Source: Pseudomonas aeruginosa
GTDB taxonomy: Bacteria > Pseudomonadota > Gammaproteobacteria > Pseudomonadales > Pseudomonadaceae
DNA length: 32,000 bases
Assembly: GCF_001457615.1 (NCBI RefSeq)
Contig: NZ_LN831024.1
Location: 270,001-302,000 of the forward strand
Direction of reading: 5' to 3'
The notes under the pieces were generated by a model, which was given only the letters and a program-made list of their open reading frames with translations, was not told where the DNA came from and made no database searches. Made by a program: the position numbers and the translations under genes. Within the stretch, counting starts at the first letter, position 1. Each line of letters starts with the position of its first letter. Of this stretch, positions 10,558 to 19,294 are shown piece by piece.

Positions 10558-11490
10558 TCAGATATCGAATACCGGTACCTGGTTTCCACCCAGTACCTCG
10601 ATCTTGTCGGTCCGGTAGACCACCATCGCCTTGCTGCAGGTCACCGTGGAACGACCCTCTTTGCTGGCATTGAGATACACCGTGCCCTTGCCGGCGTAGA
10701 CCGCTCTCGCGTTGGCGGCGATGCGCAGCTCGAGGGCCGCCGCTTCTCCGTCCTCGTCCCCGGCGAAGTCGCACCCGTAGAGGGCGATGGCCAGTTCCTT
10801 GCCGAACAGTTCGAGAAGGGTCGCACCAAAGGCCTGGGGCTCGACGAACTGCTTGCCCTGGACACGCCGGGCCATGACGTCCGCGGTGCTCTCGCCGTGG
10901 GGGTTGCCCAGCCAGAGTTGGCCAGCCGTGCCGTGGGTGGCGATGAGGATCGTATCGATGAAGTACTGTTCGCCGCTCTCCGCGGCAACCTTGCCTAGAT
11001 CCCGAACCAACTGGGCGTAGTTGGTATCTGCCTTGATCGCGAAGGCCGGCTTGTAGAGCTTGTTCCGCGCATAGGCGACGACCGCCTCCGCGAAGGCGCT
11101 GCCGGAGTCGCCTCTCCGGATCTCCTGCTGGAAGTCGTGGTAGATGACCAGGACCGCCCCTTTCCTGACCGGGCCGCTGAGCCCTCCCTTGACGATGTCG
11201 AGGGCGAAACGGAAATTGGCGCTGAGCACCTGGGACGCATGGGTAGGAAAGGTATCCGTATCGGTCAGCAGTTCTACTTCGGTACCGACCAGCACCTCCT
11301 TTCGTTCGTCGCCCTCCGCCCAGGGCGTGTCGTCCACATCCGTTCCGTAGATCCTTGCGTCCAGGTCGACCTCGACGAGCGTACTCACTGTGAAGGGCAC
11401 CAGAAGCTCTTCCGGGCCGAGTCGATTCTTGACCACGGCGCCCTTGCCTTGCTTGGCGATTTTCGTGACTACGCCATGCCATGAGCGCAT
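10558..11490 (-). CDS. Hypothetical protein with a DUF4347/CHAT-like alpha/beta domain (HG ... YGC motifs)
   Basis: 310 aa from ATG 11490 (AGGAG 8 nt upstream). The C-terminal half carries ILIATHGTAGQLWLGN and IALYGCDFAGDEDGEAAALELRIAANARAVYA. These resemble the DUF4347 pattern (SHG-x-G-x-L-x-LG ... LYGC ... G) and the His/Cys dyad order of clan-CD peptidases. G+C looks slightly lower than in the core genes. Confidence 0.55.
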   Translation of the reverse strand: MRSWHGVVTKIAKQGKGAVVKNRLGPEELLVPFTVSTLVEVDLDARIYGTDVDDTPWAEGDERKEVLVGTEVELLTDTDTFPTHASQVLSANFRFALDIVKGGLSGPVRKGAVLVIYHDFQQEIRRGDSGSAFAEAVVAYARNKLYKPAFAIKADTNYAQLVRDLGKVAAESGEQYFIDTILIATHGTAGQLWLGNPHGESTADVMARRVQGKQFVEPQAFGATLLELFGKELAIALYGCDFAGDEDGEAAALELRIAANARAVYAGKGTVYLNASKEGRSTVTCSKAMVVYRTDKIEVLGGNQVPVFDI

Positions 11491-11710
11491 CCTGTTGCTC
11501 CTGTGGGAGTCCTGGTAGGAACGGCATCCGAGCATGCAGAACTATAGACGTGAAACGGCCAGCCCCGAGGAACTATCCGCCGATCGACCCTTCATCTGGC
11601 CCCGGCCTTGAGTGCCATTCCCGGCCGGACAGGATCGGTTGCTCTGGTCTCTGTGGCGAGGGACAGGCGCTGCTCGGCGGAGCGGGTGGCGGCGAGGCAG
11701 GTCTGAAAGC

Positions 11711-12558: not shown

Positions 12559-12987
12559 CTACTTTACTAGATAGACACTTGAGAGCTTGGACCTATAGAA
12601 AATAATCAGTAATAGAAGATGGGCAGTACACGAGGCGACCGAAAGCCAAGCGTAAGAGCTTTCAGAGACCGACAGTACAGAAAAGAAGAGAATTACCGCC
12701 GTCAAGAATAGTGCTGGCATAGTAAGCACAGCAGACAAGCCGGCAAATATATATCTAGAAAATAACGCATCAAACCTCAATACAAGTTTACCAATCAACA
12801 CGCCAACAACCAACGCAAGCATAGAAATACTACCAAACAAAGTTAAAAAACCAACAAACATAGATTCAACGGGAACACCCGTGGTGTCATCGGGGTTGAC
12901 GTTACCTTCCGAGAATCCAGAAAAGGATATTGCCGCACACAGGATAACCAGCAGAAATGTAAAAATCAGAAGAATGTCTTTTCTCAT
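12559..12987 (-). CDS. Four-TM membrane protein, probable pyocin-M (ColM-like) immunity protein (PmiA-type)
   Basis: 142 aa with four clear hydrophobic helices (about 5-25, 43-70, 79-107 and 113-131). It starts 55 nt downstream of the ColM-like bacteriocin on the same strand, with GAGGA before the ATG. Its role is assigned from context and from known polytopic immunity proteins of Pseudomonas ColM-like bacteriocins. Confidence 0.7.
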   Translation of the reverse strand: MRKDILLIFTFLLVILCAAISFSGFSEGNVNPDDTTGVPVESMFVGFLTLFGSISMLALVVGVLIGKLVLRFDALFSRYIFAGLSAVLTMPALFLTAVILFFSVLSVSESSYAWLSVASCTAHLLLLIIFYRSKLSSVYLVK

Positions 12988-13042: not shown

Positions 13043-13912
13043 TTAACCAGAAATATTAACAGGGATAGTACCCGGAATTCCAATGGGATAGGGAGTAGTG
13101 TCTTTAAATTTCTGACCCACTTCACGCCCTAAGCGAGTCATCCCTTCAGCCGTTTCGGTTCGATGATTTGAAGGATTAAAGTCATATACATCATCATATG
13201 CACGGATCTCTCCACGGAAGCTCCATTGGCCTGAGGTGGACTTAACAAGGGTGCCTGTCACTCGGAGCGTAATCTCTCCAACCGTGTTTCCAGCCACCCA
13301 ACTATCCTTAGCAGTAGCGTATGGCACATTGAAATCCACAGTGGTTTGCCCCATTGGACTGCTCGTCAGAATCCCAATGAACTGAGGCATAGCCTTTACA
13401 TTAGGTTTAATATTCAAACGTTCAATAGGGAAGTTCATTTTCTTACCTTTGCCCGTCAGGTAGTGAGCAAAAGCTGCCGCGGGCGTGTAGACCCCACCAT
13501 TGAACGTATCGATTTTTGGGCGATCCCAGTTGGGTTCATCGACACCTACAGGAGCACGATAGTTGTGATTCTGCGCGCGATTCATTGCAGTGATCCTATC
13601 GTCACCTAGAGAATACTGATTGTAGTCTGCCTGAGGTAGGTCAAAGATGTCCCATATAAACTCGAAATTGGGCTGAGGAAGGCTTGGGTATCCATAAAGA
13701 GTCGTACCCCAGTTCGCCCACTGAGTCCACAGAGAAAGCAGAGGTTTCTCCCAGTCGCCATTTACATAAGCGACGTTCCGCTGGCCTTTAGAGATATAAC
13801 CAATTTGTGCCGGATGGGGTGCAGGCCAGTTTGCGCCGTTATTCCCATAGTTGTAGGTGCCAAAACTGCCCTGACTAGCATATATTGTTGTGGTACCAAG
13901 ATCCATTGCCAT
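13043..13912 (-). CDS. paeM: Colicin M-like bacteriocin (pyocin M / PaeM type), lipid II phosphatase
   Basis: 289 aa, the published length of PaeM. The C-terminal domain carries the ColM catalytic signature D-x-Y-D-x5-H-R as DDVYDFNPSNHR (nt 13160-13195). AGGAG lies 6 nt before the ATG. Confidence 0.88.
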   Translation of the reverse strand: MAMDLGTTTIYASQGSFGTYNYGNNGANWPAPHPAQIGYISKGQRNVAYVNGDWEKPLLSLWTQWANWGTTLYGYPSLPQPNFEFIWDIFDLPQADYNQYSLGDDRITAMNRAQNHNYRAPVGVDEPNWDRPKIDTFNGGVYTPAAAFAHYLTGKGKKMNFPIERLNIKPNVKAMPQFIGILTSSPMGQTTVDFNVPYATAKDSWVAGNTVGEITLRVTGTLVKSTSGQWSFRGEIRAYDDVYDFNPSNHRTETAEGMTRLGREVGQKFKDTTPYPIGIPGTIPVNISG

Positions 13913-14506: not shown

Positions 14507-15749
14507 TGACCTGCACCCCGATTTCAGTACCACGTCAAACTTAGTAGAGTCCGTTTTCCGAGCAGGAGACGGCAGTGAAAAAGCGTTTTACCGAAGAGCA
14601 GACTCTCGACCTCCTCAAGCAGGCGGAGGCCGGTGTGCCGGTGAAGGAACTGTGTCGCCGACACGGCTTCAGTGATGCCTCGTTCTACACCTGGCGGGCC
14701 AAGTTTGGCGGTATGACCGTGGCGGACGCCAAACGGTTGAAGGATCTTGAACTGGAAAACAGCCGATTGAAGAAGTTGCTCGCCGAGGCCCACCTCGACA
14801 TCGAGTCGCTAGTCGCTAAAAGTGGTCGCCCGGGGAAAAGGGTAAGCCCGACAGCACGGCGGGAGGCGGTGCAGGAGATGCAGGCGCGAACCGGCATCTC
14901 CGAGCGTCGTGCCTGTCAGTTGATCGGGCTGTTCCGCTCGGTGTTGCGCTACCAGCCGCGAGCCAGTGTGCAAAACACCGAGCTGCAAGCCCAACTGGTG
15001 GAACTGGCCCAAGAGCGCCGACGCTTTGGCTATCGCCGCCTGCACATCCTGCTGCGGCGTGCTGGCGTGCAGGTCAACCACAAGCGGATCTATCGCCTGT
15101 ACCGCGCTGCCGGCTTGATGGTGAAACGGCGGCGGCGCCGCCATGGCGTCGCGGTGGAGCGCGAACGTCTGAGTTTGCCGAGCGCACCAAACCAGGTTTG
15201 GTCGATGGACTTCGTCTTCGATGCACTGAGCACCGGGCGGCGGATCAAATGCCTGACGGTGGTCGATGACTTCACCAAGGAGTCGGTCGGCATCCTGGTG
15301 GAGCACGGTATCAGCGGCTTTCGCGTCACACGGGCGCTGGACGAGATGGCGCGGTTTCGCGGCTACCCGAAAGCGATCCGCACCGACCAAGGGCCCGAGC
15401 TCACCGGCAAGGCACTCGATCAATGGGCCTATCAGCGCGACATCAAGCTGAAGCTGATTCAGCCTGGTAAGCCCACGCAGAATGCCTTCATCGAGTCGTT
15501 CAACGGTAAGTTCCGGGACGAATGCCTCAATGAGCACTGGTTCTGTTCGCTGGCCGAAGCGAGAATCCGCATCGCGGCCTGGCGGCGGGATTACAACGAA
15601 CACCGACCGCACAGCGCGATTGGCAATCTCACCCCGGCAGAATTTGCTGCAAGTTGGCGAACTCGCCAGCAGCAGCTGAAGCAGGAAAAATTAATATCAA
15701 CCCCAGGGCCTGCTAACTAGGCAGCGGTACTAAAACTGGGGGCAGGTCA
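14507..15749 (+). mobile_element. Intact IS3-family, IS407-group insertion sequence (1,243 bp)
   Basis: Terminal inverted repeats TGACCTGCACCCCGATTTCAGTACC (14507-) and TGACCTGCCCCCAGTTTTAGTACC (complement of -15749) match at 21/25. TG...CA ends are typical of IS3. The flanking bases CTTC and ACAC show no target-site duplication. Confidence 0.85.
14575..15720 (+). CDS. IS3/IS407-group transposase, OrfA-OrfB read as one continuous 381-codon frame
   Basis: GTG start with GGAGA upstream. The N-terminus MKKRFTEEQTLDLLKQAEAGVPVKELCRRHGFSDASFYTWRAKFGGM plus a leucine zipper is typical OrfA. The C-terminal part has the DDE integrase core (...VWSMDFVFD...IRTDQGPELTG...NAFIESFNGKFRDECLN). Confidence 0.85.
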   Translation: MKKRFTEEQTLDLLKQAEAGVPVKELCRRHGFSDASFYTWRAKFGGMTVADAKRLKDLELENSRLKKLLAEAHLDIESLVAKSGRPGKRVSPTARREAVQEMQARTGISERRACQLIGLFRSVLRYQPRASVQNTELQAQLVELAQERRRFGYRRLHILLRRAGVQVNHKRIYRLYRAAGLMVKRRRRRHGVAVERERLSLPSAPNQVWSMDFVFDALSTGRRIKCLTVVDDFTKESVGILVEHGISGFRVTRALDEMARFRGYPKAIRTDQGPELTGKALDQWAYQRDIKLKLIQPGKPTQNAFIESFNGKFRDECLNEHWFCSLAEARIRIAAWRRDYNEHRPHSAIGNLTPAEFAASWRTRQQQLKQEKLISTPGPAN

Positions 15750-15769
15750 ACACTATGCTGGGAGAGTAG

Positions 15770-15805
15770 AAGGCAAGCCCGTAGTCTATCTCTCTGGCTT
15801 GCCTT
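15770..15805. terminator. Hairpin between the IS end and the Hsp70-like gene stop (possible bidirectional terminator)
   Basis: AAGGCAAGCC-16 nt-GGCTTGCCTT (10-bp stem), 16 nt after the minus-strand stop at 15822. It has an A-run on one side and a T-rich run on the other. Confidence 0.45.
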
Positions 15806-15821
15806 TTGTCTGCTCGGATTT

Positions 15822-18557
15822 TTATTCGCTCTCAATCTCCAGATTGATTTTGAAAGTTGAGAAAGAGTTACTGCCCTCCTTGAGCGATGAGGTAATTGCT
15901 GCCCCTAGTTTTGGGTTAAGTTCGGTTGCAGAGAACTCTGATTTCTTATTGCACGGTTTCACTATGGGGGAACCGGAGTTTTCTGTGGTTTTGTCGTACC
16001 AGAAGCACTCCATTCCACTCACGCTGTCAGTCGTTTCGAGCCAGAATATTAGTGGGAATAGCGGAAGAGCAAATTCGCTTTCGGTCTCAGTTAGGACTGC
16101 TAGTGTTCTTGGCTTCTGCTTGCTACTTTCAAAGGCATGTGATTTGGTAAACGGAGGGACGTCGTGGGCGACTTTGAAAACTCCAGTGAATTTGTCATCT
16201 TCAAATGGTTTTTGCTCCATGTCTGTCATGTAGCCGAATAGCTTTCCTCGCATTAGTTTTGTGCAGCAGCTGATCACTAAGGAAAGATGGCTATGGTAGT
16301 CGAACGCATTATCCTCAAGCTTTTCGTGCTTGTGATTGTTAAATTCAGATATCGCTCTTTCAAGTAAGGTGTCGTTCTTTTCTAGGAATGACCTTATTGG
16401 TTTTGAAAATTTTGCAGAGTTACCTAGGGCCTCTATTGACTGTTTTAGTACTGACTTAAGTGGCCCCATGGAGCGATGTTGGAAGTTTTTAAATATTCTT
16501 CCTGCTTTTTTATTGGAGTACAGCTCGGCCACTGTGACATAGGTCATGAATGCTAATGCGGCCTCAAATGCTTCACGTGCAACCGTAGCTGATGTGGTGG
16601 TGTTCTTCACATCAAGATACTTTCTCAGAGGATAGGCTACAGGGTATGGCAGATAGCTTATGGAGTCACTGAGGCTAGTCCACGTGGGGTCGTTTGAGCG
16701 TGCAGCAGTGATCTTAACTTGATCTTGTGTTAGAAGGCACAGAGAGGAGCAGCTTGTGCCAAAGTCGAATCCAATATAGTTCTTGGGTGATGATGTACTT
16801 GTAATGCCCGTTGTCATGTCTATGGCGAATGGCCTGCCTTCGACAGTGGCTCCTTCTACGCCATTTTCTTTGTTAGGCATCTTATATATGAAAGAAGGAT
16901 ATACGGTTCCATCTTCCTTTATTAGCAAGTCAACTGTTATGTATGAGTCAAACTGCTTGTTATCTCTGGTGTAAATAACTTGATTTTCGCTATTGTATAC
17001 TTCGTTATCTTCAGTTAGTCCTGAGTCGCTTGGCTTTGAGAATACATATGTTAGTTTGCTTTTTGGTGGCTTTGATAGGCGGATTTTCCATTGCAGGTGT
17101 TCGTTTATAAAGTTGTGGAGGGCTTGCGCGGAGGGCATTAAGTCTCCGGGTTTGACTCCATTCATATCTATCTTTTCGCCAACGGACGAGAAGTTTCTAG
17201 TCTGTTCTGATTCTTCTTCGTCTGGCTTCAGGGATAGCTTTAACGGGTTGTAGGTTACAGAGACAAATTCGCTTTCTTGTTCATAGAACCTTCTCGCGCA
17301 TTCAATTGCTAATCCATTTGCTACAACCTCTTGGAACGACTGAGATATAGGAACCGGAGTTGCGCCTTCAAGTTCGTCAGAAAAGTCACGGTCAAGAAAC
17401 TCCATTAACCATCGAATGTTGGAGGAACCTCCGGATATTAGTGTTACTGTTATTGATTTGCCATTTAGTTTCTCTTCAGCGGTCCTGAATACTCTCCCGA
17501 TCGTCCGCTTTAGATGATTTTCCCATACTTCATTTTCAAATATTTTTCTAAACTGGTGCGCAAAGAATTCATCATCGACCCATTTTGTAGCATCGTCAAA
17601 TGGGTTGATTGGTGTCTTGATAGCTGTTCGTTCGTAGGCTTCACTGTTAAGTGACCAGTTCTTTATTGTTGAGGTGAGATTGATTTTGTATTTTTCGACT
17701 TCTCGTTCTAATATTTTGAAGTTTTCTATGAACTTGGTTTTCTTTTCGCCGAGTGCGGAATAGTTTAGCTCTCCGTTTTTTACTCTTTTGTAGCTGCTGA
17801 TGCATTGGTCGGCTTCTTTTCTCTTTCCTCCCTCTAGATTCCTTTTTATTAGGTACTCGGCTATATGGAAGTTTATTTCAAATCCGCCTACTGCGCAGGA
17901 GTCAGCTGCCAATGGTTTAGAGTGTTTCCCGGTTAAACTTATGTCTCCTTGGCTAGTTGATTCAATTACGCAGGCGTCAAATGTTCCACCTCCGAAATCA
18001 AGAACAAGGGCTATGTGCTTGCTTTTATCTTGTAAATTCGGGATCCGCTGGCCGTAGCGGTAGTATTGATAGACTGCGAAAGGTTCAGGGAGGAAATCTA
18101 CTTCCTCATAGCGATTCAGTATGCGCCGAATGTTTTCTCGATAGTTCTGCATCCAAGTTTTTGTGTGCTTCTCCTCCTTGTTGGAGAAGCTTAGGGGTTC
18201 GGCAACAAGTATTTTGGCTGGGATCTTATGTTGCGCGGAAGTTTCATTTTTTATTTCTTCTTCTAGATCTTTTAGAATTGAGTTCATGAAGGTCTGTGAC
18301 AGGTCAAAGGCGCTTCTATCTTCACCATCATTTGAAGGGGCTAATTTTCCTTTTAATGTGCCTGGAGTATGTTCTCCTAGGTTTATTTTGAAATTGTCAT
18401 TGATTATAAGTCCTTCGCCTTTCTGTAAGGCGGAGTTGCCTATATGGTGAACTTCTGGGCTTTCATAGAAAATTGCAGTGGGGATGTAGCTTTCTTCGCC
18501 AACCGAATATGGCTGGATACTTGTAATCCAAAGATTTTTTGTTTGCGACTCTGCCAT
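15822..18557 (-). CDS. Orphan Hsp70/actin-fold (ASKHA) ATPase-like protein, ~911 aa, with a large uncharacterised C-terminal region
   Basis: ATG 18557 is preceded by AGGGAG at ~10 nt; ATG 18566 and the track's GTG 18623 are alternatives. Hsp70 signatures present are IPTAIFY, LVLDFGGGTFDACVIE (nt 17976-17999 for DFGGGTFD), TLISGGSSNIRW (17409-17441) and EVVANGLAIECA. A second phosphate-1-like IGFDFGTS lies at nt 16752-16775. The gene is AT-rich relative to its flanks. Confidence 0.75.
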   Translation of the reverse strand: MAESQTKNLWITSIQPYSVGEESYIPTAIFYESPEVHHIGNSALQKGEGLIINDNFKINLGEHTPGTLKGKLAPSNDGEDRSAFDLSQTFMNSILKDLEEEIKNETSAQHKIPAKILVAEPLSFSNKEEKHTKTWMQNYRENIRRILNRYEEVDFLPEPFAVYQYYRYGQRIPNLQDKSKHIALVLDFGGGTFDACVIESTSQGDISLTGKHSKPLAADSCAVGGFEINFHIAEYLIKRNLEGGKRKEADQCISSYKRVKNGELNYSALGEKKTKFIENFKILEREVEKYKINLTSTIKNWSLNSEAYERTAIKTPINPFDDATKWVDDEFFAHQFRKIFENEVWENHLKRTIGRVFRTAEEKLNGKSITVTLISGGSSNIRWLMEFLDRDFSDELEGATPVPISQSFQEVVANGLAIECARRFYEQESEFVSVTYNPLKLSLKPDEEESEQTRNFSSVGEKIDMNGVKPGDLMPSAQALHNFINEHLQWKIRLSKPPKSKLTYVFSKPSDSGLTEDNEVYNSENQVIYTRDNKQFDSYITVDLLIKEDGTVYPSFIYKMPNKENGVEGATVEGRPFAIDMTTGITSTSSPKNYIGFDFGTSCSSLCLLTQDQVKITAARSNDPTWTSLSDSISYLPYPVAYPLRKYLDVKNTTTSATVAREAFEAALAFMTYVTVAELYSNKKAGRIFKNFQHRSMGPLKSVLKQSIEALGNSAKFSKPIRSFLEKNDTLLERAISEFNNHKHEKLEDNAFDYHSHLSLVISCCTKLMRGKLFGYMTDMEQKPFEDDKFTGVFKVAHDVPPFTKSHAFESSKQKPRTLAVLTETESEFALPLFPLIFWLETTDSVSGMECFWYDKTTENSGSPIVKPCNKKSEFSATELNPKLGAAITSSLKEGSNSFSTFKINLEIESE

Positions 18558-18641
18558 AATAAGCATGCTCCCTGCTGTGTTAAGCCGGCTTGACTCAAGG
18601 GCCACTCGTTCTAGGCGAGGCACAGCCTAGAAGAAGGCCTG

Positions 18642-18670
18642 ATGTTATGTAGCCATAACATGTTGGCCAA
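18642..18670 (-). promoter_or_regulatory. Candidate sigma70 promoter with an overlapping perfect palindrome upstream of the Hsp70-like gene
   Basis: The minus strand reads TTGGCC-17 nt-TAACAT (-35 at 18665-18670, -10 at 18642-18647). The perfect inverted repeat ATGTTATG-tagc-CATAACAT (18642-18661) covers the spacer and the -10. Confidence 0.35.
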
Positions 18671-19217: not shown

Positions 19218-19294
19218 TGGCGCATCCGGCGGGATTCGAACCCACGACCCCTGCCTTCGGAGGGCAGTACTCTATCCAGCTGAGCTACGGATGC
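19218..19294 (-). tRNA. tRNA-Arg (anticodon CCG)
   Basis: The minus strand reads GCATCCGTAGCTCAGCTGGATAGAGTACTGCCCTCCGAAGGCAGGGGTCGTGGGTTCGAATCCCGCCGGATGCGCCA. It has a 7-bp acceptor stem, D and T arms (GTTCGAATC), the anticodon loop CT-CCG-AA and an encoded CCA. Its 3' end faces the islet. Confidence 0.95.

Follow-up and report, generated by a model that had tools for sequence, protein, structure and literature searches.

A candidate defence protein built on a rearranged Hsp70 in a low-G+C islet of Pseudomonas aeruginosa

The gene and its parts

The sequence analysed here (the window) is a stretch of 32,000 nucleotides (nt) of Pseudomonas aeruginosa (contig NZ_LN831024.1, positions 270,001 to 302,000 of the forward strand), numbered below from its first letter. 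Between an insertion sequence (IS) and a tRNA-Arg gene, its minus strand carries a gene for a protein of 911 amino acids (aa), which an initial annotation, made from the letters alone, had singled out as a candidate single-gene conflict or defence system with an Hsp70/actin-fold ATPase. The comparisons reported below lead us to put at roughly 0.55 the probability that the product is a horizontally mobile protein which acts alone in conflict or defence and is built on a rearranged Hsp70. The rearrangement concerns the phosphate-1 hairpin, which is found behind the predicted substrate-binding sandwich, at the head of a C-terminal module with no detectable relative. The gene and its predicted parts are the following (NBD, nucleotide-binding domain; SBD, substrate-binding domain; AF2, AlphaFold2; ORF, open reading frame).

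15822..18557, minus strand: candidate defence gene, 911 aa and stop codon, complete (ORF list and homologue N-termini)
17274..18557, minus strand: Hsp70-type NBD, aa 1-428 (AF2, Foldseek, hhalign and invariant columns)
17976..17999, minus strand: phosphate-2 motif DFGGGTFD, aa 187-194 (invariant in 63 sequences; aligns with DnaK DLGGGTFD)
17418..17438, minus strand: adenosine motif ISGGSSN, aa 374-380 (aligns with DnaK LVGGQTR)
16803..17273, minus strand: interdomain linker and SBD-beta-like sandwich, aa 429-585 (Foldseek, AF2 strands and invariant columns)
16722..16790, minus strand: relocated phosphate-1 hairpin, aa 590-612, SPKNYIGFDFGTSCSSLCLLTQD (translation, invariant columns, hhalign and phmmer)
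16248..16721, minus strand: helical subdomain, aa 613-770 (AF2 of aa 590-911)
15825..16247, minus strand: beta-rich subdomain, aa 771-911 (AF2 of aa 590-911)

The full ORF (15822..18623, minus strand) opens at a GTG and has 933 aa. The ATG at 18557, which gives 911 aa, agrees with the aligned N-termini of 63 homologues and has a GGAG 10 nt on its 5' side. The resulting product is 100% identical to P0001, a P. aeruginosa "hypothetical protein". The single 2.7-kb minus-strand gene that had been described is thus an intact ORF, and all the motifs quoted for it, including DFGGGTFD and ISGGSSN, are found in its translation. The islet is as AT-rich as had been claimed: the G+C content is 0.40-0.44 over positions 16001-18500 against 0.64-0.74 in the core flanks, in a host genome of about 67%. 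Judged by this low G+C content relative to the host and by the patchy spread of its homologues, the gene is a predicted horizontal acquisition of foreign origin.

An Hsp70-type core

The sequence signal that relates the protein to Hsp70 is weak. The Pfam HSP70 model (PF00012) matches aa 177-208 only (E = 0.008), with 14.8 bits against a gathering cut-off of 20.6, and the best NCBIfam match, the YegD-like PRK11678 (E = 3.7e-4), scores 19.5 against a cut-off of 331. The NCBIfam BeeR model NF053558 (E = 7.5e-4) is also far below its cut-off, and a phmmer search of the PDB gave E = 0.05 to the actin-like 8r2n. The fold evidence, by contrast, is decisive. The full-length AF2 model, computed from the alignment of 63 sequences (predicted local distance difference test, pLDDT, 84.1; predicted template modelling score, pTM, 0.68), was matched by Foldseek to DnaK without its lid (E = 3.6e-17, about 600 aligned columns), and also to BiP, Hsc70 and Sse1. 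In addition, hhalign placed aa 156-395 onto residues 169-360 of Escherichia coli DnaK. The earlier proposal that the N-terminal ~430 aa form an Hsp70 NBD is borne out by the matches to DnaK, BiP and Hsc70. The roughly 160 beta-rich residues noted behind this domain, whose strands span aa 440-573 in the AF2 model, can be read as an SBD-beta-like sandwich, since the best Foldseek matches are Hsp70 chains that include SBD-beta.

The residues expected of an Hsp70 active site are well conserved. K57, E158, D187, G189-T192, D194, G376/G377, G596, D598 and G600 are invariant in the 63 sequences. E158 (context PEPFAV) corresponds to DnaK E171, while D187, T192 and D194 correspond to DnaK D194, T199 and D201, and G376/G377 (context SGGSS) to DnaK G341/G342. 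K57 (context NFKxxLG) is presumably the equivalent of DnaK K70, a correspondence drawn by eye. Within the adenosine motif, S375, G376, G377, S378 and N380 are invariant. The linker SEFVSVTYNP (SEFVxVTYNP in the family), in which E430, F431, T435, Y436 and N437 are invariant, resembles the DnaK sequence VLLLDVTPLS. The protein looks like an active ATPase that has retained the Hsp70 interdomain linker, and aa 1-590 are modelled with confidence as an Hsp70 NBD, a linker and an SBD-beta-like sandwich.

A relocated phosphate-1 hairpin

Every ATPase of the actin/Hsp70 fold needs a phosphate-1 hairpin. All 63 aligned N-termini are devoid of one: the members of the family start KTLWVTS..P..I.G..YIPTA, which is equivalent to the DnaK chain from roughly its second or third strand onward, so that the hairpin (IGIDLGTTNS in DnaK) is missing there. 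A phosphate-1-type motif that the initial annotation had missed lies right after the sandwich, at aa 594-602. It reads YIGFDFGTS (Y(I/V)GFDFGTS in the family) and contains the invariant G596, D598 and G600. When the C-terminal alignment was compared with E. coli DnaK using hhalign, aa 593-626 aligned best with DnaK 3-36 (E = 5e-4), with a probability of only 31% because the aligned stretch is short. Similarly, phmmer aligned aa 590-607 to the phosphate-1 motif of the actin-like 8r2n. The order of the motifs is permuted relative to all Hsp70s known to us. The pLDDT of the hairpin is ~87 in the full-length model and falls to ~70 when the C-terminal part is modelled alone, a drop which fits the packing of the hairpin on the N-terminal domain. 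It is a strong inference from these models that the relocated hairpin docks on the N-terminal domain and would thereby complete its ATP site.

The C-terminal module

Modelled alone, aa 590-911 give a confident structure (pLDDT 94.3, pTM 0.92) made up of the hairpin, a seven-helix bundle (aa 611-769) and a beta-rich domain (aa 772-906). Foldseek found nothing significant for this model either in the PDB (best E = 0.037, prob 0.30) or among the BFVD viral models; the module has no Pfam or NCBIfam match, and a profile search against PDB sequences came back empty. The ~310 residues that could not be assigned from the sequence therefore have a confident fold that is matchless in both structure collections. 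A phmmer search with the module among 1.84 billion cluster representatives recovered only 159 clusters (50% identity), all of them either ~900-aa proteins carrying it at about aa 585-900 or fragments. Taken together, the last ~300 aa are predicted to be a helical-plus-beta fold specific to this family.

The mean pairwise identity decreases from 49% in the NBD to 35% in the helical subdomain and 29% in the beta-rich subdomain, the fastest evolving part of the protein. In the helical subdomain, LPYPVA, AREAFEA (E665), QHRSMGPLK (R695, G698, P699) and KHxK (K743, H744) are conserved; in the beta-rich subdomain, FGY774-776, P835, C851, D855 and K867. The conserved polar residues, which include R620, R645, R661, E665, E678, R695, K743, H744, K746 and D855, suggest a functional site. 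The KHxK/HKHEK stretch was also considered as a HEPN (Rx4-6H) or a phospholipase D (PLD; HxKx4D) motif, but the spacing misfits by eye and Foldseek finds no such fold.

A sister clade with a Fic domain

The closest out-group is a protein of 1041 aa from a Syntrophorhabdaceae metagenome-assembled genome (L009, 9977-13102). It aligns with the family over aa 22-613, that is, over the NBD, the sandwich and the relocated hairpin (here FLGIDFGSSNS), with an hhalign probability of 99.9 (E = 1e-35), and the alignment ends exactly where the C-terminal modules start. The C-terminus of the out-group protein matches the Pfam Fic domain (3.6e-15) as well as the PADLOC families SoFic (1e-22) and PDC-S04. 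No Fic match was found in the window protein with Pfam or PADLOC; the HPFx[D/E]GNGR motif and the domain are present in the sister clade only. A search with the core of the out-group protein listed ~40 nearer relatives, ~12 of which have Hsp70 and Fic Pfam domains, followed by the window family at 24-27% identity. The phyla of the sister clade are different ones (Planctomycetota, Acidobacteriota and Syntrophorhabdaceae), and its gene stands as a singleton in surroundings where toxin-antitoxin, IS and prophage genes abound.

The intact N-termini examined in the sister clade begin ~13 aa before the (I/V)PT motif. As strands 1-3 are absent from these N-termini, only the relocated hairpin can serve as phosphate-1 element, and its presence in both cores indicates that the permutation is ancestral to the two clades. 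The combination of a shared core and differing C-termini characterizes this core as a module that has been joined to different outputs, of which the Fic domain has a relative in a known single-gene defence system. The initial idea of a sensor-effector protein thus receives independent support, since the same core carries a SoFic-like Fic domain for its C-terminus.

Two further observations were made in the sister clade. In one locus (L093, 8001-11111), the Hsp70-like core and the Fic domain of a member are encoded separately, by genes of 651 aa and 157 aa that overlap; a 237-aa ORF comes next, and a Gp49/HTH toxin-antitoxin-like pair lies in front of them. The arrangement is either a fusion gene with a frameshift or a true two-gene form. 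In the out-group locus, a 571-aa Macro-domain protein (L009, 14090-15805, minus strand) adjoins the Hsp70-Fic gene. Between the helical C-terminus of this protein (LPLPIAF...MRKAFSIFLRYLA) and aa 620-690 of the 911-aa protein there is a weak resemblance (hhalign prob 23%, E = 9e-4). This resemblance, which is not relied on here, may reflect a shared helical adaptor domain or chance.

Distribution and genomic contexts

The family comprises 378 clusters at 90% identity, almost all of ~900 aa. Its distribution is patchy and covers Gamma-, Beta-, Alpha- and Deltaproteobacteria and cyanobacteria, with genera that include Pseudomonas, Marinobacter, Geobacter, Bradyrhizobium and Dechloromonas. In P. 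aeruginosa the gene was found on ~80 contigs only; copies at least 90% identical are also present in P. citronellolis and Pseudomonas sp. RW407. Only three plasmids carry a member, and no relative was found in 50,697 phage genomes or in the IMG/VR viral contigs. Some of the loci came from a profile scan of genome contigs in which the pattern D[FM]GGGTFD also matched generic Hsp70s; the useful ones were L007, L008 and the out-group L009.

In the contexts examined, the gene is always a singleton without conserved neighbour or partner, and the loci differ in every genome. No J-domain/DnaJ, GrpE or conserved client gene was seen in these neighbourhoods. A known defence system lies within 10 kb in 10 of the 14 independent contexts, a majority in what is a small sample without background control. 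Defence families are nominated through guilt by association on proportions of about this size. The contexts are listed below (RM, restriction-modification).

Marinobacter (L006): DUF4297 (1e-162) and HerA (3e-280) directly upstream
Geobacter (L087), one side: DrmD-like SNF2 helicase, GmrSD-like enzyme and DUF2130
Geobacter (L087), other side: Type III RM, GajB-like helicase and DrmC-like PLD nuclease
Bradyrhizobium chromosome (L088): CBASS (SMODS, ThiF, JAB, SAVED) adjoins
Bradyrhizobium conjugative plasmid (L095): Azaca ZacABC 1.3 kb downstream
B. japonicum plasmid (L091), IS-broken remnant: DISARM-like drmD and methylase
Metagenome contig L107: gene 21 nt after Type I RM hsdR (hsdMSR upstream)
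Metagenome contig L111: gene directly after BREX PglZ-BrxD-BrxHI
Metagenome contig L116: gene directly after BREX PglZ-BrxL
Metagenome contig L113: MzaA-like gene 4.5 kb away
Second P. aeruginosa strain (L098), same tRNA-Arg/gabD islet: other cargo in place of the pyocin M module
Dechloromonas (D. hankyongensis; L007, 2858-12718): first gene beside divergent Tn7-like TnsA/TnsB/TniB/TniQ; no known defence system
P. viridiflava (L003): no defence genes
Stutzerimonas (L005): no defence genes
Pseudomonas sp. PAMC 25886 (L090): no defence genes

In the second P. aeruginosa strain, the region beyond the same IS (L098, 12838-22736) encodes a 1369-aa methyltransferase (PADLOC MTase_II / PglX-like), a Type III restriction endonuclease fragment, a DUF2357+PDDEXK_7 McrC-like gene and an MTaX1-domain protein; the tRNA-Arg/gabD islet is a variable cargo hotspot. 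The Dechloromonas homologue is probably transposon cargo, given its position beside the Tn7-like module. Copies broken by an IS were found on the B. japonicum plasmid (L091, 7800-8950, IS21-type) and on a metagenome contig (L092, 794-4218, Transposase_mut). In such copies, gene callers report stand-alone C-terminal "proteins" from the conserved Met of IDMTT. A split form of the system, considered on account of short proteins of this kind starting MDMTF, was rejected, as the one such protein that was checked, P0129 (L092), is a fragment of the transposase-broken gene.

Surroundings of the gene in the window

The features that flank the gene and those that share its islet are as follows.

19218..19294, minus strand: tRNA-Arg(CCG), 3' end toward the low-G+C islet (ARAGORN; Rfam tRNA, 65 bits)
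18558..18670, minus strand: 5' region with a doubtful sigma-70-like site and a palindrome (candidate elements from sequence)
15764..15815, minus strand: stable GC-rich hairpin, possible terminator (7 nt past the stop codon; RNA fold)
14507..15749, plus strand: IS3-family element of 1243 bp that bounds the gene (18-nt inverted repeats at 14507-14524 and 15732-15749)
13043-13912, minus strand: pyocin M-type bacteriocin gene, 289 aa (Pfam Colicin_M; same low-G+C islet)
12559-12987, minus strand: hydrophobic immunity-like ORF, 142 aa, next after the pyocin M gene (same low-G+C islet)

Both boundaries named in the initial annotation were recovered: the tRNA gene at 19218 is called by ARAGORN and Rfam, and the IS end at 15749 is confirmed by the inverted repeat. 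The element encodes a 381-aa transposase with Pfam HTH_Tnp_1 and rve domains and lies 72 nt from the stop codon of the gene. It adjoins the gene in all the P. aeruginosa contigs examined, and this constant adjacency implies that both may move or persist together.

The expression signals that had been proposed are weak. A promoter-like site is present (TTAACA-16-TATTAT, 18583-18556), the sole strong one, but it overlaps the start codon and is doubtful. Likewise, a stable hairpin follows the stop codon (-23.8 kcal/mol, z -2.67), but it has no U-tract and the terminator scan made no call there. At ~85-105 nt upstream of the start codon, the two 8-bp arms of a perfect palindrome flank a 4-nt spacer (ATGTTATG-GCTA-CATAACAT, 18642-18661); the site could serve as an operator or bind a regulator. 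No small partner ORF and no Rfam element lies in the 660 bp that separate the gene from the tRNA. At the islet edge, a 325-aa ORF (10558-11535, minus strand; G+C about 0.62-0.64) has a sub-threshold Pfam DUF4347 match and no PADLOC match.

Comparison with known systems

No family of PADLOC-DB v2.0.0 matched the 911-aa protein at E <= 1, and a full-text literature search found no paper on the family. The initial remark that no named anti-phage or toxin system with an Hsp70-like ATPase is known has to be corrected, as Hsp70-like modules have already been predicted in defence. They include CnuD of the CoCoNuT systems (PMC11090510), the HSP70 components of the GTPase-centred GTPase-tubulin-HSP70 systems (PMC7159879) and DnaK-like lidless domains fused to EACC1-protease modules (PMC12642450). 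Given these predictions, Hsp70 in immunity is not a new idea; what appears to be undescribed is the stand-alone family, its split ATP site and its C-terminal fold.

The protein shares with Hsp70 (DnaK, BiP, Hsc70; PF00012) the phosphate-2 and adenosine motifs, the catalytic Lys and Glu, a hydrophobic linker and an SBD-beta-like sandwich. By its combination of NBD fold, linker and SBD-beta (Foldseek 3.6e-17) it is derived from Hsp70, yet it falls outside that family in the strict sense: its Pfam score of 14.8 is below the cut-off of 20.6; the Hsp70 motif order of phosphate-1, phosphate-2 and adenosine is changed by a phosphate-1 motif that comes after the sandwich; and a ~300-aa module without match to PDB Hsp70 lids replaces the SBD-alpha lid, with no DnaJ/GrpE gene alongside. 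From the YegD/HscC type, the family differs in length, C-terminal module, motif order and genomic behaviour, neither reaching the NCBIfam cut-off nor occupying a conserved locus.

Among the systems predicted in defence, degenerate "Walker A-like" motifs have been reported for the type III CoCoNuT CnuD / CnuCD (PMC11090510). CnuD is part of a multi-gene McrBC-like operon (CnuB GTPase, CnuC with DUF2357, HEPN), whereas the window gene is a singleton. No CnuB/CnuC-type operon partners were seen in 13 of the 14 contexts. The DUF2357+PDDEXK_7 gene of the second P. aeruginosa strain is the only McrC-like gene seen, and it lies ~8 kb off, across the IS and on the opposite strand. The window family is set apart from CnuD by its gene context. 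The EACC1-protease fusions (PMC12642450) also join a lidless Hsp70-type domain and a defence effector module in one polypeptide. Their Hsp70-type domain is reportedly ~50% identical to canonical DnaK (PMC12642450), whereas the window family is barely recognisable by sequence and has another effector module. The logic suggested here is that of the Avs/STAND NTPases and SoFic: one polypeptide with an NTP-driven switch and swappable terminal modules, encoded in defence islands. With Avs/STAND there is no homology, the switch of the window family being an Hsp70/actin-fold ATPase and not a P-loop STAND NTPase. The sister clade is the closest relative, with a core shared up to aa 613 (~25% core identity) and a Fic domain instead of the helical-plus-beta module.

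Proposed function and alternative explanations

The reading of the gene as a defence candidate withstood the two checks that could be made by sequence comparison. The homologues are not conserved housekeeping chaperones in invariable loci; they are rare, patchy singletons in varied loci, and a defence system is nearby in 10 of 14. Nor is the family an already named system, as neither PADLOC-DB v2 nor the literature searched contains it. From context and architecture combined, a role in defence or conflict in general seems likely.

How the protein would act can be proposed only tentatively, as an ATP-gated core coupled through the hairpin to a C-terminal output. The Hsp70-type core would be an ATP-driven switch or sensor, working as a ligand-responsive clamp. 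A phage-derived or infection-induced protein, peptide or other ligand would engage the sandwich or the variable C-terminal beta domain, and the nucleotide state would be passed on via the relocated hairpin, the physical tie between the ATP pocket and the C-terminal module. That module would be the output, a toxic effector or a target-binding domain that arrests infection, probably by abortive infection or growth arrest; in the sister clade, the Fic domain would hold the output position. In a split-pocket version of this scheme, the phosphate-1 hairpin would be supplied by the segment leading into the output module, so that an effector with a new fold (in the sister clade, a Fic toxin) would be released or activated through mechanical coupling to ATP binding and hydrolysis. 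It is conceivable, if rather doubtful, that the family represents a new class of single-protein immune sensors that use an Hsp70-type clamp with a split ATP pocket as infection detector.

Several points weigh against a defence protein of this design. Instead of an effector, the C-terminal module could be a lid, or a domain for sensing or for binding clients. Contacts between the hairpin and the NBD were also sought by mean-field direct coupling analysis and by mutual information with average product correction on 205 sequences, and gap artefacts and clade-level signal dominate the result. The context survey covers 14 loci without formal background control, and three of the 14 (P. viridiflava, Stutzerimonas and Pseudomonas sp. 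PAMC 25886) have no defence genes. Finally, that the family is missing from the phage and viral collections is in keeping with a host defence gene but hints at no trigger.

The alternative that survives best, which we regard as unlikely, is that the protein is a mobile-element conflict or addiction factor and not an anti-phage protein: it could be directed against plasmids, serve in competition between mobile genetic elements or be a selfish toxic ATPase that stabilises its island and spreads together with defence cargo. Copies on conjugative plasmids, as Tn7-like cargo, beside IS elements and beside toxin-antitoxin genes would suit such a factor, as would the pyocin M module next to the P. 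aeruginosa copy and the absence of any copy from 50,697 phage genomes and IMG/VR. Yet the closest same-strand adjacencies are with BREX, Type I RM and DUF4297-HerA operons, and same-strand adjacency to defence operons is a classic signature of anti-phage genes. An antitoxin-like cognate partner, moreover, is not conserved.

A specialised folding chaperone of the HscC/YegD kind, serving an accessory cargo protein and without immune role, is improbable. It would account for the full Hsp70 core, the intact linker and the SBD-beta-like domain, for the YegD-like PRK11678 being the best NCBIfam match, and for the label "molecular chaperone" that relatives bear in some databases. However, the scores are far under the cut-offs (19.5 against 331 for NCBIfam, 14.8 against 20.6 for Pfam), no context contains a J-domain/GrpE partner or a conserved client gene, an unrelated module takes the place of the lid, the distribution is rare and patchy, and in the sister clade the core carries a Fic domain of the toxin type.

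An actin-like polymerising ATPase (ParM/BeeR-like), acting in segregation or as the cytoskeleton of a mobile element, is very improbable: the weak sequence matches to BeeR NF053558 (E = 7.5e-4) and PDB 8r2n (E = 0.05) are outweighed by a fold that matches Hsp70 with SBD-beta and not actin or ParM, by the Hsp70-type linker, by the fact that no ParR- or centromere-like partner was seen and by the location of most copies as chromosomal singletons within defence operons.

Implications

To our knowledge, the stand-alone immune switches described so far are mostly P-loop NTPases. If the defence reading were validated, an Hsp70/actin-fold ATPase would join the switches of stand-alone bacterial immune proteins, and the C-terminal module would be a new effector or sensor fold to characterise. 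The sister clade, in which an Hsp70 core is fused to a Fic domain, echoes the FICD-BiP relationship of animals and may show how Fic toxins are gated. Since PADLOC v2 does not detect the family, whose annotations go no further than "hypothetical" or "chaperone", it has probably been missed in censuses of the defence systems of P. aeruginosa and in phage-therapy host-range work. A natural Hsp70 whose catalytic hairpin is shifted by ~590 residues along the chain also bears on the rewiring of Hsp70 allostery. If the split-pocket reading were true, the Hsp70/actin fold would have gained a new allosteric design, and the family would add a new branch to prokaryotic immunity.

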